Shown piece by piece: positions 3,697 through 51,153 of a stretch of 51,153 nucleotides of DNA. The stretch is from a virus. The notes below the pieces were generated by a model, which saw nothing but the letters and a program-made list of their open reading frames with translations, was not told the DNA's origin and searched no databases. Location of the stretch: the IMG/VR virus record IMGVR_UViG_3300045391_005781. One strand, written 5' to 3'. Every line of letters starts with the position of its first letter. Position 1 is the first letter of the stretch. Made by a program: the position numbers and the translations under genes.

Positions 3697-3978
3697 ATGA
3701 ATCCCATCGAACACGAAGAAAACATAAACAAACTTTTCATGAATGACGAGTACAGGTTTCCGCTTCCTCATTATATTGCGCTCGATCAAGATCAGCCTTG
3801 TATAATTTATGCGGTATTTCTTGACCGAAGAGATGCGGAAGAGTATAGGAAATGTAACGCTTATAAAGCATATGTTTATTATGTTACGGATTATAATGGT
3901 GAAACAAAATATTTTTTAATAAATAGCCTAGAAGAATACAAGCTGTTTGGAAGAGACAAAATGAGAAAAAAACAATAG
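3697..3978 (+). CDS. Hypothetical protein (93 aa)
   Basis: ORF from the track; GGAGAG SD upstream. Confidence 0.6.
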   Translation: MNPIEHEENINKLFMNDEYRFPLPHYIALDQDQPCIIYAVFLDRRDAEEYRKCNAYKAYVYYVTDYNGETKYFLINSLEEYKLFGRDKMRKKQ

Positions 3979-3996
3979 ACGAATTTTGTTCAGAAG

Positions 3997-4080
3997 AACA
4001 GTTTAACAAAAGGTAAAAACAGCTATGAAATTCTACAGAACAGTTTAACAAAAGGTAAAAACAGCTATGAAATTCTACAG
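3997..4080 (+). repeat. Perfect 42-bp x 2 tandem duplication that includes the start codon of ORF 4067
   Basis: aacagtttaacaaaaggtaaaaacagctatgaaattctacag occurs twice back to back. Copy 1 gives a 7-codon mini-ORF (MKFYRTV*); copy 2 starts the 138-aa ORF. Confidence 0.9.
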
Positions 4081-5344: not shown

Positions 5345-5386
5345 AGTGTCCGAAAAAATCGGACAGTTAAAGATGAAAGCTTCAGA
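5345..5386 (+). repeat. 42-bp dispersed direct repeat, copy 1 (intergenic); contains the hairpin gtccga-aaaaa-tcggac
   Basis: agtgtccgaaaaaatcggacagttAaagatgaaagcttcaga matches 9462-9503 at 41 of 42 positions. Confidence 0.9.
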
Positions 5387-8128: not shown

Positions 8129-8803
8129 ATGAAAAAATTAGTTTTGCTTTTATCTGCTCTCCCTTTGGCTGCATACGCTAATGGGACAGCTATTCCATCC
8201 ACTGCCTCAGCACCCACAATCAAAGAAACAAAAGCTACTCCAAAAAGCTTTACCGGAATTTATATAGGTCTACATGGAGGACATGGAACAGGAACAAGCC
8301 ATAACAAACATTTTTTGGCGTCATCTCATCTTGGTTTAAAGGGTCTTCTTGGAGGCGTTCATCTTGGTTTCCAAAAAGATTTCTCTACAGTTATTGCAGG
8401 GATAGAAGTTTCTGGCGCCTTAAGCCAAACTAAGCATAAAGGAAAAACAGACATTTTTCAAACAACCGCAAAGACTTCTTTTAAAAGAAAGAACGCTTTT
8501 GGAGGAGCTTTGAAATTAGGTGTAAATTTAAACGATTGGCATGTTTATGCAAAAGCTGGTTATGAAAATGCGAAATTTACACACAGTGGAGCTATAGGCG
8601 CAGATTCTGCCTCAAAATCTAAACGACTGCACGCATTTGTTCCTGGTCTAGGATTTGAAACATTTGTAGATACAAATGTTTTGTTGGGAGCGGAATGGAC
8701 TTATACTTTGTATGCAAAGAAGAACTTTGGCGATAATGATTTGAGGATACATCACAGAGCAAAAATTGGGGATGCAAAACTTCGGTTGAGTTACAAGTTT
8801 TAA
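8129..8803 (+). CDS. Outer-membrane beta-barrel protein, Omp25/Omp31 (OMP_b-brl) family-like, with signal peptide
   Basis: Signal peptide MKKLVLLLSALPLAAYA. Alternating beta-strand pattern rich in G, Y and aromatic residues. C-terminal ...LRLSYKF with a terminal Phe, typical of proteobacterial OMPs. Confidence 0.85.
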   Translation: MKKLVLLLSALPLAAYANGTAIPSTASAPTIKETKATPKSFTGIYIGLHGGHGTGTSHNKHFLASSHLGLKGLLGGVHLGFQKDFSTVIAGIEVSGALSQTKHKGKTDIFQTTAKTSFKRKNAFGGALKLGVNLNDWHVYAKAGYENAKFTHSGAIGADSASKSKRLHAFVPGLGFETFVDTNVLLGAEWTYTLYAKKNFGDNDLRIHHRAKIGDAKLRLSYKF

Positions 8804-9301: not shown

Positions 9302-9554
9302 TTTCATTAAGCTCATATAAATTAAGAGGCATAAGGTCGCCAAAATGGGCGCAATCAAATCCGAAAGCTCGTTGTTTTGGTAGCCTGTTAGGCATATCAG
9401 TTATATTGGTTAAAAACCATGAAAAAGTTAAACCTCCATGAACTTGCAAATCATTAACTAAAGTGTCCGAAAAAATCGGACAGTTGAAGATGAAAGCTTC
9501 AGACGGAAAGATGAGTTCTACTGCTTGCTCCAATACAGAACCGATTCCGTCCAT
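9249..9554 (-). CDS. Hypothetical protein (101 aa from MDGIGS...; the track offers a longer 131-aa start at 9644)
   Basis: The ATG lies 4 nt after the stop of the upstream ORF (TAAGGGGATG), suggesting coupling. Conserved-looking HGGLTFS...GFDCAHFGD motifs of unknown family. Carries copy 2 of the 42-bp repeat. Confidence 0.55.
   Translation of the reverse strand: MDGIGSVLEQAVELIFPSEAFIFNCPIFSDTLVNDLQVHGGLTFSWFLTNITDMPNRLPKQRAFGFDCAHFGDLMPLNLYELNEIDLMRKSKISPRFALEG
9462..9503 (+). repeat. 42-bp dispersed direct repeat, copy 2 (inside ORF 9249..9554, encoding PSEAFIFNCPIFSD on the minus strand)
   Basis: Matches 5345-5386 at 41 of 42 positions. Confidence 0.9.
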
Positions 9555-16811: not shown

Positions 16812-16887
16812 TGGCTCCCCGAGACGGACTCGAACCGTCGACCTAATGATTAACAGTCACTTGCTCTACCAACTGAGCTATCGGGGA
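16812..16887 (-). tRNA. tRNA-Asn: tRNA-Asn (anticodon GTT), 76 nt with encoded CCA
   Basis: Manual cloverleaf: acceptor TCCCCGA/TCGGGGA; D arm GCTC-AGTTGGTA-GAGC; anticodon arm AGTGA-CTGTTAA-TCATT; T arm GACGG-TTCGAGT-CCGTC; discriminator G; CCA. Confidence 0.9.
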
Positions 16888-17977: not shown

Positions 17978-19300
17978 TTAATGCAAAAATCTCATTTTGT
18001 TTTCAAAAGGAATATTTTCGTATTGTATATATGTATGTATACAATATGAAAAAATAACCCCTATGATTAACCAAGCATAAAAAATAATATTAAATCCAAA
18101 CATATCAGATAATTTATAAATAACAAAAGAAGTCAGTATATACATAACTGTTTTCCCAATAAAAAATGCTTTGTTAAAAGTTCTCGATCTTGCTTGAATG
18201 GGCAAACCTTTTAACAAAACTCCAATTGAAGGTATGTGATCTACCCCTAAGATAACAGAAAAACACTGACATACAAATATTTCTACAGGAGACGTTATAA
18301 AACTACTAAAACAAATTCCTAAGCTTAGAATCCAAATCAGCAATAAATATGATCTCATTTTTGTAATTTTTATCGGGTCATAATCATACGCTAACCAACC
18401 CCACATATAACTAGACAATCCTTGAATTAAGGCCACAATCGCATTATTTAACAAAATTTCAGAAGGCGACATTTTTGCTTCTACGAGCAACTTGACGCAA
18501 AATACATATACAAAAACAAACCCAAATCCAAAAAGTAGCTCAATCCCAACTATTCTTAAAATATTATGCTTATAATATAAATATATTTCTTTAATAGATA
18601 CTATTTTCTCTTCGGATGAATATTTAAGTATTGTATAATCTAGGCTTTCTTTTACCTTTTTTCTTGTTTGGTACCCAACAAGAGCAACAATGGAACCAAT
18701 AAAAAAAGGAAAAGTCCAACTCGGCACCTCATATATTTTTTGAGGAAGAAATCTTAAAGATATAAACGATATAACAAGACTTGCTACGACTCCTAAATTA
18801 CAAACGAGATCAAGAAGCCCTGAATAATAAGCTGTTTGCGATTTTGAGTAAGATTCCGCTATATATATATTAGAAGAAAGATACTCTCCCGTTAAAGCAA
18901 AGTCTGCAATTCCTCGAAGCAAACAAAACAAAAAAGCACTGTATAAAGTACGCTCCAAAAAGATGCCTTGAATGGGTATTAAAAAAAATACAACCGCCGA
19001 AATCATACATGACCAAATAAGAGGTACTCTGCGTCCCCTTGTGTCTGCTATATAACCCCATATCAGAGTTCCACATAAAGAACATATTAGAGTCATACAG
19101 AATCCAAAAATAATAGAATCATCAGGATTAAAATAAGGAGGAAAGAAAAGATAGCTTAAAATGGCGGCAAAGTGGATATAAAGAGCAAAATCATAATTTT
19201 CCAAAAAATTTCCCATAGATATATAAAACATGTATTTCTTTGGATGAGAAACCATCAAGACTTGATTTCGCGTAGATGTATCAGTATTATTCCCATGCAT
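17978..19300 (-). CDS. MFS transporter, metabolite:H+ symporter (MHS; ProP/KgtP-like) family (440 aa)
   Basis: GNFLENYDFALY (compare the GN..EWYDF..Y signature). ADTRGRR loop 2-3 motif. About 12 hydrophobic segments. Confidence 0.8.
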   Translation of the reverse strand: MHGNNTDTSTRNQVLMVSHPKKYMFYISMGNFLENYDFALYIHFAAILSYLFFPPYFNPDDSIIFGFCMTLICSLCGTLIWGYIADTRGRRVPLIWSCMISAVVFFLIPIQGIFLERTLYSAFLFCLLRGIADFALTGEYLSSNIYIAESYSKSQTAYYSGLLDLVCNLGVVASLVISFISLRFLPQKIYEVPSWTFPFFIGSIVALVGYQTRKKVKESLDYTILKYSSEEKIVSIKEIYLYYKHNILRIVGIELLFGFGFVFVYVFCVKLLVEAKMSPSEILLNNAIVALIQGLSSYMWGWLAYDYDPIKITKMRSYLLLIWILSLGICFSSFITSPVEIFVCQCFSVILGVDHIPSIGVLLKGLPIQARSRTFNKAFFIGKTVMYILTSFVIYKLSDMFGFNIIFYAWLIIGVIFSYCIHTYIQYENIPFENKMRFLH

Positions 19301-19402
19301 TGTTGCAGCTCCCCCTGTTTTACAGGCTTCAACATATCATTTTCATTCGTTTATCTCAATCTGTTTTTTTAATTTTTTTCTTTGATCGTCTTTTATAGAT
19401 TT

Positions 19403-19425
19403 GTTACGTGAGAGTTACGTAAAAA
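19403..19425 (+). repeat. 23-bp direct repeat, copy 1 (GTTACGTGAGAGTTACGTAAAAA): two GTTACGT heptamers 11 bp apart
   Basis: Perfect match with 19634-19656. Confidence 0.9.
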
Positions 19426-19599: not shown

Positions 19600-19606
19600 C
19601 TTCGTC

Positions 19607-19628
19607 TAGATCGTTTTAAAACGATCTA
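19607..19628. promoter_or_regulatory. Perfect 22-bp palindrome TAGATCGTTTT|AAAACGATCTA between the two 23-bp repeats
   Basis: Self-complementary over all 22 nt. Lies 44 bp upstream of the int ATG. Confidence 0.85.
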
Positions 19629-19633
19629 ATTTA

Positions 19634-19656
19634 GTTACGTGAGAGTTACGTAAAAA
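19634..19656 (+). repeat. 23-bp direct repeat, copy 2
   Basis: Perfect match with 19403-19425. Ends 15 bp before the int ATG. Confidence 0.9.
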
Positions 19657-19671
19657 GAAAGGAACTATCAA

Positions 19672-20850
19672 ATGGGAAAACTAACGCAGACACGAATCAA
19701 CGAAGCTTTGCCGGAAAAAAAAGATTATTATATATGGGATGATAAATTTACAGGATTTGGATGCAGAATCTATCCGTCAGGACATAAGACGTATGTTTTT
19801 ATGTACACTTCTCCTCTTTATAAACGACGCCAAACCTTAAAAATAGGGAAAGATGGAAACATTGATCTCAAAAAAGCTTATGATATCGCGAAAGGATACT
19901 CAGGCGACGTTGCAAGAGGGTTAGATCCAAAAGATCTTCAGAAACAACAAATTGAAGACAAAAAGCTTGAGTTAGAGAACAAAAAAAAATCTATTAGATT
20001 TGATGAGTTTTGGGAAATATTTATGCAAAATCATGTTAATAAGCGCAAAACAGCAACGATTAGAGTTGTAATGTGTTTTAGCAAATATCACATTTTGCCA
20101 TACTTTAAAGATTTTCTGCTTAAAGACATTAAATTTAAAGATATTTTAGAATTTCAAAACCAATTAAGCCATTATGCTTCAACAAAAGTCGGGGTGATAG
20201 CTCATTTAAAAATAGCTTTTAATTTTGCAGAACGTCTAGGCTATATAGAAGATAATGCAAATCCTTGCAAAAATATTAAAATAGGAAAAACAAACCAAAA
20301 ACAAAATTTTTTAACCAAAGAAGATTTAATGCGCCTTGAAAATGAACTTGATAACAGTTTATTATCTAAAGACGTGCATATATCCACCATTATGTCCATA
20401 TATTTTGCTCTCTATACGGGGTTGAGAAAAAACGAAATTTTAAAACTTCGATGGGAAAATATAAATTTTGAAGATAAAAATCTTATTTTAGAAGATAGTA
20501 AAGTTGGAAAACGAGTATATCCTCTCAATAAAAAGGCCATAGAGTTACTCCTAAAAATGAGATCGAAACATACTAATGCATATATTTTTTATGGAAGATT
20601 TCCTGATTCTCACTTAAAAGATGTTTATACTTTTTGGGTAAATTTACGTAAAAAACTTAATCTTGAAAAAATTCGCATCCATGACTTGCGCCACTCTTTT
20701 GCAAGTTTTGCCATAAAAAATGGTGTTAGTATTGTGCATTTGTCTAAATTGCTAGGCCATACAAACATTACCACAACGATGAGATATGTACATTGCGATA
20801 TGGAAGACCTGCATAAAGCCTCAAATCAAACAGCCCAAGTCTTTAAATAG
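19672..20850 (+). CDS. int: Tyrosine integrase, P4-type (DUF4102 arm-binding N-domain plus phage_integrase catalytic domain), 392 aa
   Basis: The N-terminus LTQTRINEALPEKKDYYIWDDKFTGFGCRIYPSGHKTYVFMY fits the Arm-DNA-bind_3 pattern. The C-terminus has GLRKNE (Arg), HDLRHSFAS (HxxR) and LLGHTNITTTMRYVH (His...Tyr). Confidence 0.9.
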   Translation: MGKLTQTRINEALPEKKDYYIWDDKFTGFGCRIYPSGHKTYVFMYTSPLYKRRQTLKIGKDGNIDLKKAYDIAKGYSGDVARGLDPKDLQKQQIEDKKLELENKKKSIRFDEFWEIFMQNHVNKRKTATIRVVMCFSKYHILPYFKDFLLKDIKFKDILEFQNQLSHYASTKVGVIAHLKIAFNFAERLGYIEDNANPCKNIKIGKTNQKQNFLTKEDLMRLENELDNSLLSKDVHISTIMSIYFALYTGLRKNEILKLRWENINFEDKNLILEDSKVGKRVYPLNKKAIELLLKMRSKHTNAYIFYGRFPDSHLKDVYTFWVNLRKKLNLEKIRIHDLRHSFASFAIKNGVSIVHLSKLLGHTNITTTMRYVHCDMEDLHKASNQTAQVFK

Positions 20851-21139
20851 TTAATTTCAAAAAAGTAAACTTTTGCGAGTAATTTTTATCTTTGCAAAAA
20901 ATAAGAAATAATTTATCATAAGAAAATTAGAGGGAATAGTTCTCTCTAATTTGGGCGAGATGCCATAGTGCGATAACACCATGACACCTCTAACCATCAT
21001 CAACAACATGGTGAAGACGATGGCTTTGTACATAGTATCCAATCTTTTTCTTTTATTCCAGTTATTTCCCTTCGCTTCACGGTTGATGATGGTTTTCTTT
21101 TTGCGCCTATATTGTCCAATTTGCAAAGAAGGGTAAAAT

Positions 21140-21412
21140 ATGTTAAACAACTTGAAACATGAAATTAAGATCATCCTTGTGGAACACAAGATAACAAAAA
21201 AAGATATAACATTTATCGTCAGCCAAGCTTGTAAAGAAATAAATAATCCTATTCCAATTAATACTTCTTTTGAAAAGCTTGTTGCAAATCAGCTAGATAA
21301 ATATAATATTCAATATGTGAAGAAATTTGATATGATAACAAAAATTTGGCTAGAGATAATTAATCACAAACAAAAAAAATCTCTTAAACTTTCTGGAACT
21401 AAGTATAGTTGA
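21140..21412 (+). CDS. Hypothetical protein (90 aa)
   Basis: ORF from the track. Confidence 0.5.
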   Translation: MLNNLKHEIKIILVEHKITKKDITFIVSQACKEINNPIPINTSFEKLVANQLDKYNIQYVKKFDMITKIWLEIINHKQKKSLKLSGTKYS

Positions 21413-21531
21413 AGAGCTTAATAATACTACTAATAAATAATCAAAAATAATGATATGCGTTATCTGTTTTATTTGTGGATTTATTTTCTGCTTAATCCTA
21501 AATAAACTGATAAGATAATAAAGGAAGAAAC

Positions 21532-21780
21532 ATGAGCAATGTAAACAACAACCTTCAAGATAAATATTTTTCTACATTTGTTAACAACAAAATTTATGCC
21601 GCAGTATATCTTATAAACGGAAAAATGTATGACGGATTCATAACAGATTACGATGCTTTTACCTTTACTATTCTCAAAAAAATAGAAGGTAAAAATATAG
21701 AATCATTAGTATATAAACATGCTGTTACGGTAATTACCGTATTTATTCCTGGATTCCATGACAAAGATAAAAGAAAATAA
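21532..21780 (+). CDS. hfq: Hfq-like RNA chaperone (Sm fold), 82 aa
   Basis: NLQDKYF, VYLINGKMYDGFITDYDAF and LVYKHAVTVI compare with E. coli Hfq SLQDPFL, IYLVNGIKLQGQIESFDQF and MVYKHAISTV. AAGGAAG SD upstream. Confidence 0.8.
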   Translation: MSNVNNNLQDKYFSTFVNNKIYAAVYLINGKMYDGFITDYDAFTFTILKKIEGKNIESLVYKHAVTVITVFIPGFHDKDKRK

Positions 21781-21853
21781 CTGGTTTGTTTATTCAATGT
21801 TTTGATTTATTCCAGAAACAGAAGTTTGATTACTACGATGTAATAGGGAATTG

Positions 21854-21879
21854 CCGCAGCGTCTCGTGGCGCTGTCGGT
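21854..21879 (+). terminator. GC-rich hairpin about 75 nt downstream of hfq (ccgcagcg-tctcgtgg-cgctg(t)cgg)
   Basis: An 8-bp stem with one bulge in an otherwise AT-rich stretch. No clean U-tail. Confidence 0.35.
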
Positions 21880-21956
21880 CTTCAAAATAAAATCATTAAA
21901 CTTCAACGCAAACATTTAAAGATAATAAATAAATTTTAACTATAAAAGGATCTAAT

Positions 21957-22349
21957 ATGGCAATCGTAGAATTTGTTCCTCGCAAAACGAAACCTGACAT
22001 TGAATCTAAAGTACATATATCTTTCACTCGTAGGTTTAGCAAAAAGAAAAAAATCGTCCATGTCCTTGTACTGCGGATAGGCAAAAAAGTTGCTAAAGCA
22101 ATTAATCTTATGCCAGGAGATAGGGTGTCATTCTTTTGTAATGACGAATATCCTAGAATTTGGTTCATCAAAAAATCTCAAAATAAAGGTTATAAATTAG
22201 GAGGAAAACCTCATATGCATACTTTTACCATTCAATGTACATGGGATTTATTTATCCCTGATAAAAATGAATTTGCAAATCATTTAGTGGGCCACAAAAT
22301 TGACCAAGATAGTATAATAATTGATGCGAAAAACACAATCACTGATTAA
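21957..22349 (+). CDS. Hypothetical protein (130 aa)
   Basis: ORF from the track. A weak AbrB/SpoVT-like segment (LRIGKKVAKAINLMPGDRVSFF) is not enough for a call. Confidence 0.55.
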   Translation: MAIVEFVPRKTKPDIESKVHISFTRRFSKKKKIVHVLVLRIGKKVAKAINLMPGDRVSFFCNDEYPRIWFIKKSQNKGYKLGGKPHMHTFTIQCTWDLFIPDKNEFANHLVGHKIDQDSIIIDAKNTITD

Positions 22350-22416
22350 GTTGATCTTGTTTTTTGCACGAGAACATTCTATCATAAGTTCGAAAACGCC
22401 TATAATAGGGTTTTCT

Positions 22417-22471
22417 CCAATGCTTATCTTAAGATTGGATTTACAAACCTATTGCTCAATGGAGGATAGAA
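22417..22471 (+). promoter_or_regulatory. ROSE-like RNA thermometer in the 5' UTR of the sHSP gene: two hairpins, each with a bulged G, the second sequestering the SD
   Basis: Hairpin 2 (22449-22469): CUAUU(G)CUC-AAUG-GAGGAUAG. UUGCU pairs with the GGAGGA SD and has a bulged G. Hairpin 1 (22417-22438): CCAAU(G)CUUA-UCU-UAAGAUUGG. A TATAAT box lies at 22401-22406. Confidence 0.6.
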
Positions 22472-22894
22472 ATGACTCTCGATCTACAACCTTTTTTTCG
22501 TTCCACTATCGGTTTTGATCAAATAGCTGATATCTTAGAGAAAGCTACCAATAAAAAATTTGTTCAAAACACTTATCCGCCTTATAACATTGAAAAACTA
22601 AATGAAGACAGCTACATGATTAGCGTTGCCGTTGCTGGATTTAATGAAACAAACCTTGAAATAACAAAGCACAATAATCTTTTGCAAATCGATGGTAAAA
22701 TTGAAAAAGAAGAAGAAAAAACAATGTTCCTGCATAAAGGTATTGCAACACGTTCTTTTCAATTACAATTCAGACTAGCTGATCATATGGACGTGAAAGA
22801 TGTTTCTATTGAAAATGGAATGCTTTTACTCCACTTACAAAGAGATATTCCAGAAGAAATGAAGCCACAAAGGATTAAAATAAGTAAATTTTAA
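22472..22894 (+). CDS. Small heat-shock protein, Hsp20/alpha-crystallin family, IbpA-like (140 aa)
   Basis: TYPPYNIEKLNEDSYMISVAVAGFNETNLEITKHNNLLQIDGK compares with IbpA GYPPYNVE...YRIAIAVAGF...L.I......L.V.G. Confidence 0.9.
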   Translation: MTLDLQPFFRSTIGFDQIADILEKATNKKFVQNTYPPYNIEKLNEDSYMISVAVAGFNETNLEITKHNNLLQIDGKIEKEEEKTMFLHKGIATRSFQLQFRLADHMDVKDVSIENGMLLLHLQRDIPEEMKPQRIKISKF

Positions 22895-22895
22895 T

Positions 22896-25139
22896 TTATT
22901 CTTCTGTTTCGGAAGATTCTCCTAAAGATCCTTCCTGTTTACGTATAGCCGGAAGGATTTGTTTTAAGTAAATCTGTCTCATTTCTGTTTGGTGTTTAGC
23001 AGCATCTTTTAGTTTGTTCTGCTGGCGAGCAAGTGCAAATTTAGCTGCGGCATCGGTGTATTTTTGATTGGCAGCAAGACGGGATAAAAGATTAATTCCT
23101 GCTGTTGTTGCGGCTGTTCCTAACAATTGTCCGGTGCCTACCCCAATACCTAATATTCCATACATCATATTGCCAATTCTTTTAAAATCTTCCTGAGCTA
23201 AGGCAGTACCACTGGGATTTGCTGCTTGCTTTCCAGATTTAATGAATTGTTGAGAAATCTTTGCGAGTTTATTCATGTCTTCAAAAGAGTGTTCTCCCAT
23301 CAATGCTTTTAAAAGAGGTTTATGCCTAGATTTGTTCTCAAACATTTGAGCTAATTTTGCATAACTTATCCCACCTTCTCCCACTTTTAAAGCATCATGG
23401 ATATATTCTTCTGCTTTAGCGCGTTTTAAAGACTGCATAACTTGTTTTGCGGCAGGAGATGTTCCTAAAATTCTTGATAATTCATTAATATTTTGTGGAG
23501 AGGTCATATAATTAAAGGCTTCTTTCGGCATTTGGCCTTTATATAAAGATTCAGCAAAATCAGATCTTACACGATCAGCTATTTCTTGTTTATAAAATGA
23601 ATTAGCTGCGCGCCAATTGTTGAGGAATTCTTTGTTTTTTGTGGATGAAATATCTTTATCCAAGGCGCTAATTAAAGAAGTCATAAAACCTTTAGCTCCT
23701 CTTGCCTCTTCTCCATATTGGATATCACGCATAAAAGCTGAGCGTTGTTGGATTAATTTATCTAATGAAATTTCCGATGGAACTGATTTTAAAGATTCCA
23801 AATATTTATTTATTTCTTCTTGAGCGTTTTTTCCTAATCTTTCATCAATCTTAAGTTTTTGGGAACCTAATCCCCAAGCTTCGCTTAATTCAGCCAATCT
23901 TTTTAATACAAATTTCATATCAGAAGAAGGAACGTCAGCTGAGAGTTTGCCCTTTAGTTCTTTAATTGTGTCTAAAGTATGAGTTGGAACTACTTTATCA
24001 TTTGAGGTTAAATATTCTCTTGTTTTATCATATAATTTATTTGCTTTTGAAGAAATTTCTGCTTCTTCTTGCTTCAGTTTCTGAAAATAATCTCTTGAGG
24101 CTGTTTCTTTACCAATATTCTCTGGAGCAATAGATTCAATTTTATCTTTGATTAAATCAATCATTTTTTGATCAGCAGCTTGGATGCCTTTTTTATATTT
24201 TTCACTGCTAAAGATAGATTTAAAAACTGAGTTTGCTAAAAAGTTAGAAATATAACTATCTAGCTTTACATTAAAAGGAATATCAACACCAAGATCTTTT
24301 GCCGCTTTTAAAACATTTTCATTTGGCTTTGCTAAAAGTGATAATGCGCGTCCAACTGTCTCTTCCCCAACAGATGATTTACCAGTTAAAACATCCTTGG
24401 CGGATTTCCCAACTCCTTTTGCAAAAACTCCGGCTCCTTTTGCTGCGGCTTGAGTAAAACCACTGGCACCAATTCCTGCTCCTAATGCAGCTAAAGGATT
24501 AATACCCTCTTCTTCTAATGCTGATAAAGTAGCTCCTGTGGCTGCCGCTCCTGCAAGTTCTGTTGGCTTTGTAGTTCCAATAGTCCCCAAAACTTTCTCT
24601 CCTGTTTTCTGACCAACTTTCCCGAGCGCTTTAGCAGCTCCACCTGGCCCTGCAAGAGCGCCTGTAAATTTAGCTGCTTCATATTGGTGTTTAATGTCAT
24701 CAGGAGTTTTTGTGTATCCTCCAGTTGCTGTATCAATACTTTTCTCGATTGCTTCGGATGCTGATGGAATTAAGGGAAGTTCTTTCTGGCCTGAAACCTT
24801 TTCATAAAGCATACGAGCTAAAGAAGCTGGATCAAGATTAGCGCTTATAGCTAACATTGGATGTTTTTCTCCAAGCTGTTCACGAAGTTCAGCACTAGCA
24901 TTTGCAGCTTGAGCCGGAATATTATATGCCATTGCAGTTGTGTCCGGAATAGCACCAAGAGCACCAGAGGCCGCTCCTTTGCCTAAAACTGCTGCATGTT
25001 GAGGTAAAGATGTACCATGTTTAGGAACAATCACAGCGCCTCTTTGTTTTGCCTGCTCAACCTTATCTGACGCTATATTCCATATTTGACCATCAGGAGT
25101 CCGCATTTGAATCATAAATTCATTAGATTTTGGCTCCAT
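22896..25139 (-). CDS. Large internal virion/ejection protein (747 aa) with Gly/Ala-rich and C-terminal hydrophobic segments
   Basis: Last and largest gene of the virion operon. Contains GILGIGVGTGQLLGTAATTAGINLL. No tape-measure context. The call rests on position and composition. Confidence 0.55.
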   Translation of the reverse strand: MEPKSNEFMIQMRTPDGQIWNIASDKVEQAKQRGAVIVPKHGTSLPQHAAVLGKGAASGALGAIPDTTAMAYNIPAQAANASAELREQLGEKHPMLAISANLDPASLARMLYEKVSGQKELPLIPSASEAIEKSIDTATGGYTKTPDDIKHQYEAAKFTGALAGPGGAAKALGKVGQKTGEKVLGTIGTTKPTELAGAAATGATLSALEEEGINPLAALGAGIGASGFTQAAAKGAGVFAKGVGKSAKDVLTGKSSVGEETVGRALSLLAKPNENVLKAAKDLGVDIPFNVKLDSYISNFLANSVFKSIFSSEKYKKGIQAADQKMIDLIKDKIESIAPENIGKETASRDYFQKLKQEEAEISSKANKLYDKTREYLTSNDKVVPTHTLDTIKELKGKLSADVPSSDMKFVLKRLAELSEAWGLGSQKLKIDERLGKNAQEEINKYLESLKSVPSEISLDKLIQQRSAFMRDIQYGEEARGAKGFMTSLISALDKDISSTKNKEFLNNWRAANSFYKQEIADRVRSDFAESLYKGQMPKEAFNYMTSPQNINELSRILGTSPAAKQVMQSLKRAKAEEYIHDALKVGEGGISYAKLAQMFENKSRHKPLLKALMGEHSFEDMNKLAKISQQFIKSGKQAANPSGTALAQEDFKRIGNMMYGILGIGVGTGQLLGTAATTAGINLLSRLAANQKYTDAAAKFALARQQNKLKDAAKHQTEMRQIYLKQILPAIRKQEGSLGESSETEE

Positions 25140-25141
25140 AT

Positions 25142-26263
25142 TTATTCCTTGACTCCTAAATCAGAAAGATCATAAGGATTAGAATTTTCTGTATTTGATT
25201 TAGATTCTTCGTGTTGAATTTTGTCATTCTCATCTAACATTGGATAATAATTGCCAATGATGGCTTTTTCATAAACATTAGCTTTTCTAATATTATCTTG
25301 CGCTCTTTTTTCCCAAATATCTGATATTTTTTCAAAGCCTTTGGTTGTTAATTTTCCATGTGGAGCGGCTTGTTGAATTGCTTTTTTTAGCATATCTGTT
25401 GTGTTTCTTCCTTTTTGTCCCATAATTACATCAAGGTTTAAATCGGCAGATAATTTTTTTAAGATATCTACAGCAGCTAGTTTATTAGGATCAGATAATT
25501 CTCTCATGATTTGATTACGCCAAGATACATCGTTTTCATCATTGATAACATGCAAAAAACTTGTTCCAATATCTGGATATTGTTCAAATATGGTTTTCAT
25601 TTCTGCAATAGCTTCAAGAGCACGGTGATTAAATGGCACATTTTTTACATATTCTGAAGCCGTTGTTTCGAAATTTTCTCTAAATTTTTTAGGCAAAGAA
25701 GATAAAGGAACAGCTCCTTTTGAAGAAGAAATTTGTTCCTGTTGCTCGGGGTGGATTTCGTCAAGCTTCCTTTGCAATTGTTTTTCATGCAAATTCAAAT
25801 ATTTATTGCGATATGCTTTTTGTTCAGCAAATTGCGCTTCTCTATGTTTTCTTAATTCTTCCTGTTCTTTTTCCCTTTGCTGAAGCTCTAGCATATTCAA
25901 TGCCACTCTTTCTTGCATTTCACGTTGTTTGATAGCTTTATCCTGAAGATAGGCATTACGCTGCGCGATTCTTTGTTCCTCAGTCGTATAAGCATTCACA
26001 GCAGGCATAATACTTGCATTCAAAGCTGCTAAAGTTCCACCGAGTCCACTCCCATATCCTGGACGCGACATATTTGATCCTAAAGCTAACATAGCATGGC
26101 CAAATGCTCGTTGTTGCTGTTGGCGATCCATCTCTAGAGAATTGTTAGCTGCTTGAATTGCAGATTGTGTACCATTTAAAATGGGAGATTGATCAACTTC
26201 TTGGTTTTTTGCTTGCTCTAAATCAGATAAATTATGCAAATATTGCATAAGTATTGGGTCCAT
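25142..26263 (-). CDS. Internal virion protein, Gln/Glu-rich coiled coil (373 aa)
   Basis: ORF from the track; the call rests on position. Confidence 0.5.
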   Translation of the reverse strand: MDPILMQYLHNLSDLEQAKNQEVDQSPILNGTQSAIQAANNSLEMDRQQQQRAFGHAMLALGSNMSRPGYGSGLGGTLAALNASIMPAVNAYTTEEQRIAQRNAYLQDKAIKQREMQERVALNMLELQQREKEQEELRKHREAQFAEQKAYRNKYLNLHEKQLQRKLDEIHPEQQEQISSSKGAVPLSSLPKKFRENFETTASEYVKNVPFNHRALEAIAEMKTIFEQYPDIGTSFLHVINDENDVSWRNQIMRELSDPNKLAAVDILKKLSADLNLDVIMGQKGRNTTDMLKKAIQQAAPHGKLTTKGFEKISDIWEKRAQDNIRKANVYEKAIIGNYYPMLDENDKIQHEESKSNTENSNPYDLSDLGVKE

Positions 26264-27276: not shown

Positions 27277-28836
27277 TTATCTATGACGTTGTCTCATATA
27301 TGAACTTAAAGATTTTGCTTTTGGAGGTAATCCCTTAACACCTTTATGACGCATCACATTTTTTTGCAAAAGATCTAGTTTTTTAGCGCCATTTTGATTA
27401 TTCCCTTTACCCAATAATGATACTTGATGAGGTTCCACTCTATATTCTCCCTGTGAAACTTTTGCCGGAATTGATCGACGTGTATATCCTCCACTGTTAT
27501 GACGTTTATACTGACTTAATCCCATGGTATGTTCTAAATCATGGAAAAAACGATCAAGTTTTCGAGCTCCAGCCGCGCTATTTCCGTCTCCCAGATGTGA
27601 AACCGCCGTTGCATTTATAATATAAGAATTTTCTGGTAAATCCATTTCGACATCATCATCTTGCCCTCCAGAATCTCCATAAATATAACCGCCTTTGGCA
27701 AAACGAGGATTTACATCTCTAAAATATTTTTTATGATAACCAGCCTTTCGCCCCTCTGCTTCTTCTATATCATCAGGAACATCAAGTTGTTCTCTAATCA
27801 AAGGTCTTATAGGTCTTGGATATTGATCAGGTCTCCACATATCCGAAATCCCTCGAGGTCCAATTAATCTGTTAAATGCTTTTAATTCATTTTGAATATC
27901 CCCAACATTTGGTTCTGATTTATTAGGACGCATTTTTTCATTTCTCATCAACATTCCACCTAATGCAATAGGCAAAAGCCAACTTGACATGCCCCCCAAA
28001 CCTCCAAGTCCAGAAGATCCGAAAAAAGAAGATGTATCTTTTGATGCTCCTTGATTTACTCCCTGAGTTAAAGGTGCAAGTTCTTCTGTATAGATTGGAT
28101 TTCTTGATACAAGAGCATTTTCGCTTCCTCTTCCAAGCGCAGAACCAAATGACCTCATGGCATTTCCATATTGACCGCCACCTATTTGCTCCAGTCCTCG
28201 TCCTACATTTGTCATACCTAATCCAGACAATCCTTTACCTACCATAGGCAGCCCATACCCAACGCCAGCACCAACGCCTGCTCCACGCAAAGCCGCTTTA
28301 AATGGGCTTTTGCCTCTTGCCTGTCCACTTAGCGCTCCGGTCAATGCGCCTCCTAATGGAGCGCCAATACCTGGTAAAAGTGTATTTCCTGCTAAAGCGC
28401 CTGCTAAAGGAAGTGCTTTACGAAATATTCTTTTTAATTTCTTCCAGAATCCAAATTGAGGTAATCCAGTATACGGATTAATATCCATCCCATGTTCTAG
28501 ACCAAGTTCCATTGCTTCTTCAGGATTAATGTGAGCAAGAATCGTGTCATCTCCTTCACCTTCTTCCGATAAATAATCTGCCATTTCAGAAAGGTTTTGA
28601 GGATGAACTCTGCCACCGTGGGCATATCGCGCTTCTAATTGATTTGGATTGGTAAATGGAGCTTGAGGATTTAATTGTGGCGTTTGAGAGCTTGGATACA
28701 AAGGTGGCAACGATGCAATGGGAGAAGGATACATTGGCAATGGATTTTGATTCATTAAACCATATGCATATGGCATTTGATTTTGATTATTTAACATGTT
28801 GGGATTCAATCCCATATTCGGCATTTGATTAAACAT
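27277..28836 (-). CDS. Internal virion/ejection protein (519 aa from MFNQMPNMG...). It has an N/Q/P-rich N-terminus, a Gly-rich hydrophobic core and repeated x-GG motifs.
   Basis: The ATG is preceded by GGAGGG; the track start at 28854 is 6 codons upstream. Motifs seen: YAHGGRV, DDTILAHINPEEAMELG...NPYTGLPQF, ALPLAGALAGNTLLPGIGAPLGGALTGALSG and FAKGGYIY. Confidence 0.55.
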   Translation of the reverse strand: MFNQMPNMGLNPNMLNNQNQMPYAYGLMNQNPLPMYPSPIASLPPLYPSSQTPQLNPQAPFTNPNQLEARYAHGGRVHPQNLSEMADYLSEEGEGDDTILAHINPEEAMELGLEHGMDINPYTGLPQFGFWKKLKRIFRKALPLAGALAGNTLLPGIGAPLGGALTGALSGQARGKSPFKAALRGAGVGAGVGYGLPMVGKGLSGLGMTNVGRGLEQIGGGQYGNAMRSFGSALGRGSENALVSRNPIYTEELAPLTQGVNQGASKDTSSFFGSSGLGGLGGMSSWLLPIALGGMLMRNEKMRPNKSEPNVGDIQNELKAFNRLIGPRGISDMWRPDQYPRPIRPLIREQLDVPDDIEEAEGRKAGYHKKYFRDVNPRFAKGGYIYGDSGGQDDDVEMDLPENSYIINATAVSHLGDGNSAAGARKLDRFFHDLEHTMGLSQYKRHNSGGYTRRSIPAKVSQGEYRVEPHQVSLLGKGNNQNGAKKLDLLQKNVMRHKGVKGLPPKAKSLSSYMRQRHR

Positions 28837-50104: not shown

Positions 50105-51153
50105 CTATCCATACAATTTCATTTTTATCCTCATAGATGTATCTTCCATCTGTTGATCTGTTTGATTTGCGATCCATCCACTTAGGCTTAACCGAATTAA
50201 AGCTTGAGAAAAGGCATCAACAACATCTCGAGAATCTCCATTTGGAAACATAGCGCAGTTCTCAACAAGCATTTCGGAAGTACGTCGCAAAAAAGTAAAG
50301 TTCGGCGGTTTAGCAGCAACCCAAACGCGCCCAGATTCAATTAAAGGAGAGATCAGCTGTAAACGTTTGTCTTTTGCTTTCCCATCCCCAGGAAGCCTAT
50401 TAAATTGAGAAGGATCAAATCCAACCGCTGGTATGCCAGCGCGACGAAAATCCTGAATTAATGTATAGCCTGTCGCTTTACCTTCGATCAGCACCAACGA
50501 AGGTCTGTGTTTACCATCTGGTTGGACTTTAGTAACCCCATTATTTCGATAATCAAGATAAAATTCCTGCGCGATCTTTCGCAGTTCCGGATACTCCAAA
50601 CGGCCTTTCCAAAGATTTAATAAAACAACCTTGTAAACTTGGTTCTCATCTTGAAAAACACCGAGCGTTACACAAGCCGATGAGGCCGAATCCTTTGTTC
50701 CTAAAAAGGCTGTGTCCCACGATTGAATCACGAAAGATAGCTTTGGAGGATTTGCCTCTTTCCAAATCTGAAACCATTCCTTTTTTACCCATCCACCTCC
50801 TACAGGCGCCGGACGCTGTTGAAATTGACCCGCAATATTATATTCACTTCCCAAATCTTTCTTTTGTTTCTTAACCGCATCTTCTTTCCAATACTCAGGC
50901 CATAGTAATTCCCCCTCTTTTTTTCGGGGATCGCTCCATAGCGCTTCTCCAGTTGAAGAAAGCACCACAGTAGAACATCGACGAGATTCTTCAAATTCCA
51001 TCGGCAAACAAAGATGCACCCATCCATCTTCTTTTTCCTTTAGCAAATATCCCGTTACATCTTTTTCGCTTATTCTTTGCTGAACATTCACCATGACGTT
51101 TGTCTCGGGATTATTTTTACGAGATGACCACGTCCCAGAAAACCAATCAATTG
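50105..51153 (-). CDS. terL: Terminase large subunit, C-terminal nuclease part (continues from 668->1 through the overlap)
   Basis: ORF 50105..51094 starts MVNVQQRIS, identical to the end of the 1-668 reading frame. FVIQSWDTAF...LVLIEGKATGYTL...DVVDAF fits an RNase-H-like terminase nuclease. Confidence 0.85.
   Translation of the reverse strand, partial: IDWFSGTWSSRKNNPETNVMVNVQQRISEKDVTGYLLKEKEDGWVHLCLPMEFEESRRCSTVVLSSTGEALWSDPRKKEGELLWPEYWKEDAVKKQKKDLGSEYNIAGQFQQRPAPVGGGWVKKEWFQIWKEANPPKLSFVIQSWDTAFLGTKDSASSACVTLGVFQDENQVYKVVLLNLWKGRLEYPELRKIAQEFYLDYRNNGVTKVQPDGKHRPSLVLIEGKATGYTLIQDFRRAGIPAVGFDPSQFNRLPGDGKAKDKRLQLISPLIESGRVWVAAKPPNFTFLRRTSEMLVENCAMFPNGDSRDVVDAFSQALIRLSLSGWIANQTDQQMEDTSMRIKMKLYG
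51084..51153 (+). repeat. Terminal overlap, copy 2 (identical to 1-70)
   Basis: Direct comparison with bases 1-70 shows a perfect match. Confidence 0.95.

Follow-up and report, generated by a model that had tools for sequence, protein, structure and literature searches.

The 51,153-nucleotide stretch analyzed here (IMG/VR virus record IMGVR_UViG_3300045391_005781, hereafter the window) carries a gene for a small heat-shock protein (sHSP). The mRNA of this gene appears to begin with a ROSE-like leader of about 80 nt, folded into three hairpins, which probably gates translation by temperature. Sequence comparison gives good support to the leader as a real, conserved member of a broad ROSE-like family of alphaproteobacteria, and it likely functions as an RNA thermometer. 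ROSE-like elements in front of sHSP genes are textbook knowledge, and the main finding will hardly surprise a specialist. The window is a complete temperate phage genome of 51,083 bp. The range of the ROSE-like family now includes a temperate phage and an uncultured, AT-rich lineage of alphaproteobacteria.

The three-hairpin leader and its family

The leader covers about 22392-22471, and each of its three hairpins has one bulged G on its 5' arm. The leader, its putative promoter and the gene comprise the following elements.

22357-22362, + strand: putative -35 hexamer TTGTTT, weak, 17 nt 5' of TATCAT (TTGACA or TTGACT in relatives)
22380-22385, + strand: putative -10 hexamer TATCAT, at the position of the relatives' -10 hexamers, about 7 nt before hairpin I
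22392-22415, + strand: hairpin I, GAAAAC-(G22398)-CCUA / UAA / UAGG-GUUUUC, in the minimum-free-energy fold from 10 to 50 °C
22416-22439, + strand: hairpin II, UCCAAU-(G22422)-CUUA / UCU / UAAG-AUUGGA, in the minimum-free-energy fold
22440-22448, + strand: A/U-rich linker UUUACAAAC, unpaired in all predicted folds and variable among relatives
22449-22469, + strand: hairpin III, the presumed thermosensor, from the sequence and the predicted fold
22472-22894, + strand: sHSP gene, 140 aa, IbpA-like Hsp20, an open reading frame (ORF) with Pfam, PHROG and NCBIfam matches

Hairpin III (22449-22469, CUAUUGCUCAAUGGAGGAUAG) has the strands CUAUU(G)CUC-AAUG-GAGGAUAG. Its eight pairs are C:G, U:A, A:U, U:A and U.G, then, after the bulged G22454, C:G, U:A and C:G, with AAUG as the loop; the 3' arm reads G-A-G-G-A-U-A-G. 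The anti-Shine-Dalgarno (anti-SD) sequence UUGCU (22452-22456) pairs with five of the six letters of the Shine-Dalgarno (SD) sequence GGAGGA (22461-22466), the wobble U22453.G22465 lying beside the bulge. The hairpin ends 2 nt 5' of the AUG at 22472 (ATG, 22472-22474), and every fold leaves this AUG free. For 22412-22490, the minimum-free-energy fold consists of exactly hairpins II and III, with one bulged G each.

An earlier note on this DNA, made from the letters alone, had described hairpin III with its UUGCU/GGAGGA pairing and bulged G, and had called a U(U/C)GCU anti-SD with a bulged G the hallmark of ROSE elements. Both are found in the sequence and the predicted fold, and the leader is homologous to alphaproteobacterial sHSP leaders. 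The note was also right that two bulged-G hairpins precede the gene (its hairpin 1 is our hairpin II), but its leader of about 60 nt, with two hairpins only and TATAAT (22401-22406) as the promoter box, is not supported, for reasons given below.

In published usage, a ROSE-like element comprises two to four hairpins upstream of an sHSP gene, a predicted bulged G and, in the hairpin closest to the 3' end, a U(U/C)GCU sequence whose pairing to the SD is imperfect (PMC3669281, PMC11342760). The window has this anatomy, with an sHSP 5' untranslated region (5'UTR), anti-SD/SD pairing, a bulged G with its wobble, and three hairpins. All three hairpins look alike, in the window and in 20 relatives: on the 5' arm of each, a single nucleotide, usually G, is left unpaired at a distance of 3-4 bp from the loop. 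The hairpins resemble three copies of one structural module. A terminator or attenuator reading of the hairpins was rejected, there being no U-tract 3' of any of them.

At gathering score, Rfam reports no ROSE element in the window, only a tRNA. In a permissive scan of 351 nt, the Rfam ROSE family (RF00435) is the top match, with 20.1 bits and an E-value of 0.8 against a threshold of 45 bits. Its alignment is good for hairpin I, where 22392-22415 falls on ROSE hairpin I with high posterior, and for the anti-SD/SD core; the outer six pairs of the last hairpin are deleted. Two further Rfam families, ROSE_2 and ROSE_3, exist, and neither matches the leader at E ≤ 10. By the Rfam threshold, the leader is thus not a ROSE element in the strict sense. 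In control runs, the ROSE model gave 54.6-77.8 bits on Bradyrhizobium and Xanthobacteraceae-type loci and 35.7-37.1 bits on Dongiaceae and Rhodospirillaceae loci. Because none of 20 other alphaproteobacterial sHSP loci reached its gathering score, the model is too narrow to decide membership, and so was the covariance-model check that the earlier note had advised. We therefore built covariance models of our own, from which the window was excluded.

The first model, R1, was made from 10 relatives with hairpins I and III annotated. On the window it matches 22388-22474 with 65.4 bits (E 2.4e-15), the next best match scoring 17 bits. That second match (28774-28832, - strand) lies inside an ORF and was dismissed. 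Among 98 distant sHSP loci, R1 finds 63 (E ≤ 0.01), and every match ends at the sHSP start; the Rfam ROSE model places two of these loci (L046 and L081) above its cut-off and one (L020) just below. The second model, R2, was built from the 63 leaders found by R1 only, whose proteins are at most 54% identical, with the close clade of the window also excluded. It gives a single match on the window, again at 22388-22474, with 44.3 bits (E 3.2e-8), covering model positions 1-93 with all pairs standard. Of 213 distinct sHSP leaders, 161 have the ROSE-like motif no more than 48 nt from the start; for other ORFs at the same loci the count is 20 of 1942, so that sHSP genes are preceded by the motif about 75 times as often as other genes. 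The exact 21-mer of hairpin III has no match in IMG/VR. Since the curated Rfam model misses most of this family, annotation pipelines under-report such elements.

The pairing is maintained across distant relatives. In the alignment of the 63 leaders (A5), 94% of the cells are paired, compared with 78.7% after shuffling, where none of 500 shuffles gets as high, and with 40-60% once the pairing partners are slid. Compensatory changes occur in 10 of 16 pairs, six of the eight in hairpin I and four of the eight in hairpin III, and 97.8% of the hairpin I cells are paired. Frequent G.U pairs at covarying positions, for example CG:38 versus UG:24 among the 63 leaders, speak for an RNA element and against a DNA operator. 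The letters U.GCU do not vary among 109 distant leaders, for which RNAalifold returns (((.(((....)))))) and leaves the G unpaired. The combination of MAFFT and RNAalifold on these 109 leaders resolves the hairpin III core only and misaligns hairpins I and II; the covariance-model alignment was used instead. When 20 related leaders were folded, they shared the plan of three hairpins, each with a 5' bulge of 1 nt, and a bulged hairpin stood at the position of hairpin II in nearly all of them.

The close clade comprises the window, a sister phage (L247) and three chromosomal loci (L248, L252 and L257), whose leaders align from about 22392 to the ATG. Within it, hairpin I is 100% paired with two compensatory pairs (e.g., A:U to G:C), and in hairpin II both partners have changed in four pairs (e.g., U:A to G:C). 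The five sequences have the same hairpin III (100% identity); the leaders of the three chromosomal loci are 67-78% identical to that of the window. The leader is more conserved than the coding sequence, as seen from the identities to the window.

Leader: L247 85%, L248 77.5%, L257 77.5%
Coding sequence: L247 68%, L248 62.7%, L257 60.7%
62 nt upstream of hairpin I: L247, L248 and L257 each about 50%

Proposed temperature gating and competing explanations

We propose that, at low temperature, the weak hairpin III would block binding of the 30S subunit, and that on warming it would open in a zipper-like manner, enabling translation of the IbpA-like chaperone. The stable hairpins I and II would probably aid the correct folding of hairpin III, as reported for other ROSE elements. 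The computed energies at 37 °C are -9.0, -7.1 and -5.3 kcal/mol for hairpins I, II and III, of which III is the weakest. In silico deletion of G22454 takes hairpin III from -5.3 to -9.1 kcal/mol, so the bulged G costs about 3.8 kcal/mol; the homologous Bradyrhizobium hairpin has -12.2 kcal/mol. In the temperature series suggested by the earlier note, the SD is not single-stranded at low temperature and stays paired throughout the folds from 10 to 50 °C, with P(unpaired) rising from 0.18 to 0.30, and G22454 is unpaired over the same range. In the oppF element, deletion of the bulged G abolishes heat induction, and the crystal structure has the bulged G flanked by a U.G wobble and a C-G pair (PMC11342760). 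Hairpin III of the window has the same U.G, bulged G and C-G arrangement.

Several observations weigh against a leader that acts as a ROSE-type thermometer. The Rfam score stays below the gathering value (20.1 vs 45 bits), and the window has no counterpart of the lower stem in which canonical ROSE1 pairs its AUG. Nearest-neighbour folding melts hairpin III only above about 60 °C and leaves the SD about 75% paired at 42-45 °C. The leader of L062, which is matched by the Rfam ROSE model, likewise stays folded in silico, and such melting therefore says nothing for or against thermosensing. The folding energy is no better than that of shuffled sequences (z = -0.76), a modest value that is expected because the structure should be weak. 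The putative promoter is weak, and read-through from the upstream Hfq-like gene and ORF130 may occur. Finally, the relatives at 59-64% identity, L254-L256 (at about 2460-2500), L249 and L250, keep the bulged-G hairpin, as CUAUUGCUCAUUUGAGAAUAG or CUCAAUGCUCAGAUGAGGUUGA, while their best SD (AAGGAG) lies just 3' of the hairpin and is not sequestered by it. Because their SD lies outside, the bulged-G hairpin may have a role beyond SD masking.

Such a role could be binding of the sHSP itself. The leader would then mainly serve an autorepression that is titrated by protein aggregates, so that aggregation would be sensed rather than temperature, although both kinds of sensing could operate together. 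In E. coli, IbpA acts on the 5'UTR stem-loops of its own mRNA to repress it, for which it needs an IX(I/V) motif (PMC10410725). The phage protein is IbpA-like over its full length, and its C-terminus (...R-I-K-I-S-K-F) has an I-K-I motif. Hairpins I and II covary yet do not contact the SD, and the retention of the hairpin in L254, L249 and L250, with the SD moved out, fits the same explanation. Conversely, the mechanism has been demonstrated for E. coli IbpA only, and the invariant letters are exactly the anti-SD and the SD, as SD masking predicts. We regard autorepression as the main function of the leader as unlikely and continue to favor temperature gating.

The extent of the leader depends on where transcription begins. 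The promoter probably lies upstream of hairpin I, as the weak TTGTTT-17-TATCAT (22357-22385), and the transcript most likely starts near G22392, because the relatives' promoters point there and conservation begins there. A start near 22392 gives the leader of about 80 nt with three hairpins. ROSE-controlled rhizobial genes have a sigma-70-type promoter directly 5' of hairpin I. In the close relatives, TTGACA or TTGACT is followed after 17 nt by TATTCT (L248), TAGAAT (L257) or TAGGTT (L252), and these promoters end about 7 nt 5' of hairpin I. The promoter scan called nothing on the + strand near the leader, neither TATAAT nor TTGTTT-17-TATCAT. A sigma-32-type reading of CTTG...TCTATCAT was considered as a candidate only.

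The earlier note had placed the active -10 box at TATAAT (22401-22406), which would leave a leader of about 60 nt with hairpins II and III only. The hexamer is perfect, the TTGTTT/TATCAT candidate upstream is weak and uncalled by the scan, and two-hairpin ROSE-like thermometers occur in Pseudomonas (PMC3669281). However, TATAAT has no usable -35 at 16-18 nt and no TG extension, is itself uncalled by the scan, and forms the upper stem and loop of the conserved hairpin I. In the relatives it reads TATGAT, TATGGT or CTTATA, as the upper stem or loop of a covarying hairpin. Conservation begins at 22392, not 22412, and the relatives' TTGACA-17-TAnnnT promoters end before hairpin I. This shorter layout is improbable, though an internal promoter is conceivable, and the three-hairpin leader is preferred.

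A conserved leader need not respond to temperature. It could be kept for mRNA stability, processing or initiation, as a temperature-insensitive relic cassette carried along with a captured gene, and the computed melting far above physiological temperatures would agree with this, as would the marine viral leaders that follow late-promoter-like ATAAATA boxes and also precede groES, groEL and dnaK, a pattern that may reflect a general signal for expression. We give this explanation very little probability. Published elements with the same motif are thermoresponsive, and bulged-G deletion abolishes induction (PMC11342760; PMC3669281). Purifying selection on an invariant bulged G and wobble would also be hard to explain by a stability or expression signal.

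ROSE was originally named as a DNA repression element, and a z-score of only -0.76 would suit a DNA operator, with a repressor binding the inverted repeat, or a hairpin arising by chance from AT-rich sequence; both are effectively excluded by the common G.U pairs at covarying positions, the asymmetric bulge on one strand, covariance-model E-values of 3e-8 to 2e-15, and the enrichment of the motif before sHSP genes. The sequence TTGCTC-N3-8-GGAGGA occurs once in the window against 0.06 expected, and among the 57 ATG ORFs of at least 90 aa in the window, only one has an initiation region more structured than that of the sHSP gene. Together with covariance-model matches to this site only, these counts argue that the hairpin is not due to chance.

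The carrier phage, its cargo and its host

Bases 1-70 of the window are 100% identical to 51084-51153 over 70 nt. Because of this terminal identity, the window is a circularly closed or terminally redundant phage genome of 51,083 bp and not a prophage within host DNA. It encodes terminase, virion, tail-spike and DNA-ejection proteins, a primase and a YqaJ-type exonuclease, and also a tyrosine integrase and a tRNA-Asn. The identical ends and this gene set of terminase, virion, primase and integrase make it a complete temperate phage genome, and the phage-borne position of the sHSP element, as claimed in the earlier note, is borne out. The genes upstream of the leader are as follows.

19672-22349, + strand: same-strand cargo and lysogeny module upstream of the sHSP gene, from Pfam matches
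19672-20850, + strand: integrase, Pfam match
21140-21412, + strand: ORF90, in the upstream same-strand module
21532-21780, + strand: Hfq-like protein, 82 aa, Pfam Hfq 1.4e-12; TIGR02383 55.6 bits, just under its cut-off of 61.7
21957-22349, + strand: ORF130, no assigned function, in the upstream same-strand module

The sHSP gene lies on the integrase strand, 3' of the Hfq-like gene and ORF130, and is convergent with the virion genes. Its ORF matches Pfam HSP20 at 1.4e-16 and PHROG 432 Hsp20 at 5.9e-36. It also matches the NCBIfam IbpA model along its full length (9.5e-41), yet under the equivalog cut-off of that model, and the phage sHSP is for that reason classed, from these profile matches, as IbpA-like rather than as IbpA. 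An IbpA-like small heat-shock gene downstream of the leader, as the earlier note had read it, is thus confirmed. The nearest relatives of the protein, at 56-70% identity, are metagenomic; the named ones are Alphaproteobacteria, and one cluster includes metagenome-assembled genomes (MAGs) of Holosporales. Protein scans of genome, metagenome and viral collections gave only relatives that are at most 54% identical. A contig of 100.6 kb also encodes the same protein. Phage-borne Hsp20 genes are common: 509 GenBank phage records have an Hsp20 homologue, mostly from cyanophages and all below 60% identity.

Since all named relatives are Alphaproteobacteria, the phage host is, as judged from these relationships, alphaproteobacterial. 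The Era protein beside the closest chromosomal sHSP copy (L248) likewise has alphaproteobacterial named relatives only. The earlier note had left the choice between an alphaproteobacterial and a gammaproteobacterial host, and the latter finds no support. A blastn search of 19600-25200 against GenBank phages gave no match.

We propose that the cassette of promoter, leader and gene would have been taken from an alphaproteobacterial host chromosome and retained under selection beside the integrase. The lysogen, and possibly the infected cell too, would gain an extra heat-inducible holdase. The temperature-gated lysogenic conversion proposed in the earlier note is likewise an inference. A promoter, a predicted thermometer and a chaperone gene beside an Hfq-like gene would form a compact regulated cargo, which may improve the heat survival of a lysogen.

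The gene order of the module recurs on other metagenome contigs. The sister phage L247 keeps the order integrase, ORF90, Hfq, sHSP without ORF130, and its sHSP is 70% identical to that of the window. Between its Hfq and sHSP genes, L247 has a sub-threshold match to the Rfam DUF3800-V RNA (3726-3821, - strand; 31.7 bits, cut-off 37.4), the place of which is taken by ORF130 in the window. An RNA chaperone of the Hfq type adjoining an RNA-regulated chaperone gene on a phage may be no coincidence. A gene for an MFS transporter precedes the integrase in L247 and is also present in the window (17978-19300, - strand).

Two 26-nt direct repeats, TTTGTTACGTGAGAGTTACGTAAAAA, at 19400-19425 and 19631-19656 (96% identical, 231 nt apart) lie just 5' of the integrase gene and may be arm or operator sites of an attP/int region. 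The window further contains a gene for an outer-membrane beta-barrel protein (8129-8803, + strand), the tRNA-Asn (16812-16887, - strand), a perfect tandem duplication of 42 nt at 3995-4078, and a separate 42-nt repeat at 5345-5386 and 9462-9503 (98% identical, 4.1 kb apart). The sHSP gene converges with a virion gene for a 747-aa product; a single nucleotide separates their stop codons (22892-22898), and no terminator-like site is predicted between the two genes.

Related elements and leaders on other phages

The closest curated family is RF00435, with the founding ROSE1 of Bradyrhizobium japonicum hspA. Like the window leader, its members lie in the 5'UTR of class-A, IbpA-like sHSP genes of Alphaproteobacteria. 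Hairpin I of the window shares the layout of 6 bp, bulged G and CC/GG, and the last hairpin shares U(U/C)GCU against GGAGGA with a bulged G. In contrast, the window has 36% G+C instead of about 66%, three hairpins instead of four, and a last hairpin of 8 pairs instead of about 16, without the lower stem that pairs the AUG; it is also carried by a phage. Three hairpins, each bulged by 1 nt on the 5' side, are also the plan of sHSP leaders from Rhodobacterales, Rhodospirillales and Holosporales-like MAGs. Unlike the window, these leaders from outside the Hyphomicrobiales are chromosomal and usually have a strong TTGACA -35.

The ibpA thermometers of Pseudomonas putida and P. aeruginosa resemble the window in their short U(U/C)GCU-SD hairpin, free AUG, stable 5' hairpin and IbpA-type gene, but they have two hairpins in 61-62 nt, compared with three in about 80 nt here, as well as a sigma-32 promoter, and belong to Gammaproteobacteria (PMC3669281). 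The ROSE-like thermometers of ABC-transporter genes have a U.G wobble, bulged G and C-G pair opposite the SD in a geometry identical to that of the window, whereas they are chromosomal, control another gene class and share no 5' hairpin architecture with it (PMC11342760, PMC12857270).

RNA thermometers of other kinds occur on phages or prophages. The lambda cIII mRNA is a phage RNA thermometer that works through unrelated alternative structures in lysis/lysogeny control. The fourU element of SPbeta blyA is, like the predicted thermometer of the window, a temperature-sensing 5'UTR structure of a temperate phage; its motif is unrelated, and it serves a lysis/lysogeny gene rather than chaperone cargo (PMC10586365). 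In the literature searched, coverage of which is incomplete, we found no paper on ROSE-like leaders of phage sHSP genes.

The motif is present in all 68 of the distinct IMG/VR viral sHSP leaders that were fetched. R2 finds 55 sites on 80 viral loci, and almost all of these sites end where the sHSP gene begins; ATAAATA, which resembles a T4-type late promoter, occurs about 60 nt before the ATG in 50 of the 68 distinct viral hsp20 leaders. It is conceivable, and we put this forward only tentatively, that ROSE-like leaders are a common regulatory module of phage chaperone genes and not a mere passenger in the window, with phages gating their chaperone set by temperature or by sHSP feedback during infection. 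Leaders before hsp20, groES, groEL and dnaK on marine viral contigs suggest shared post-transcriptional control of phage chaperones.

Besides hsp20, the genes groEL, dnaK and groES have R2 matches directly upstream on marine viral contigs of IMG/VR, where they cluster with hsp20 and with genes for a ClpS-like protein and a 2OG-Fe(II) oxygenase. The matches of the leader model outside hsp20 on these contigs are the following.

L176: 1198-1255
L209: 974-1033
L221 and L222: 958-1022
L194: 938-995 (also L196 and L197)
L183: 817-893

AT-rich marine viral contigs have hairpin I and a CU(U/C)GCUU..AAGGAG hairpin before hsp20. Bulged-G hairpins of the type U(C/U)GCU..AGGAG also stand before hsp20 in isolated phages from GenBank, namely Pelagibacter phage HTVC115P (L258), Sinorhizobium phage Phosso (L259) and the Kyanoviridae phage C48C1 (L261). 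A GCC..GGG hairpin I is present in Phosso and C48C1 as well, and R2 scores 16.9 bits on C48C1.

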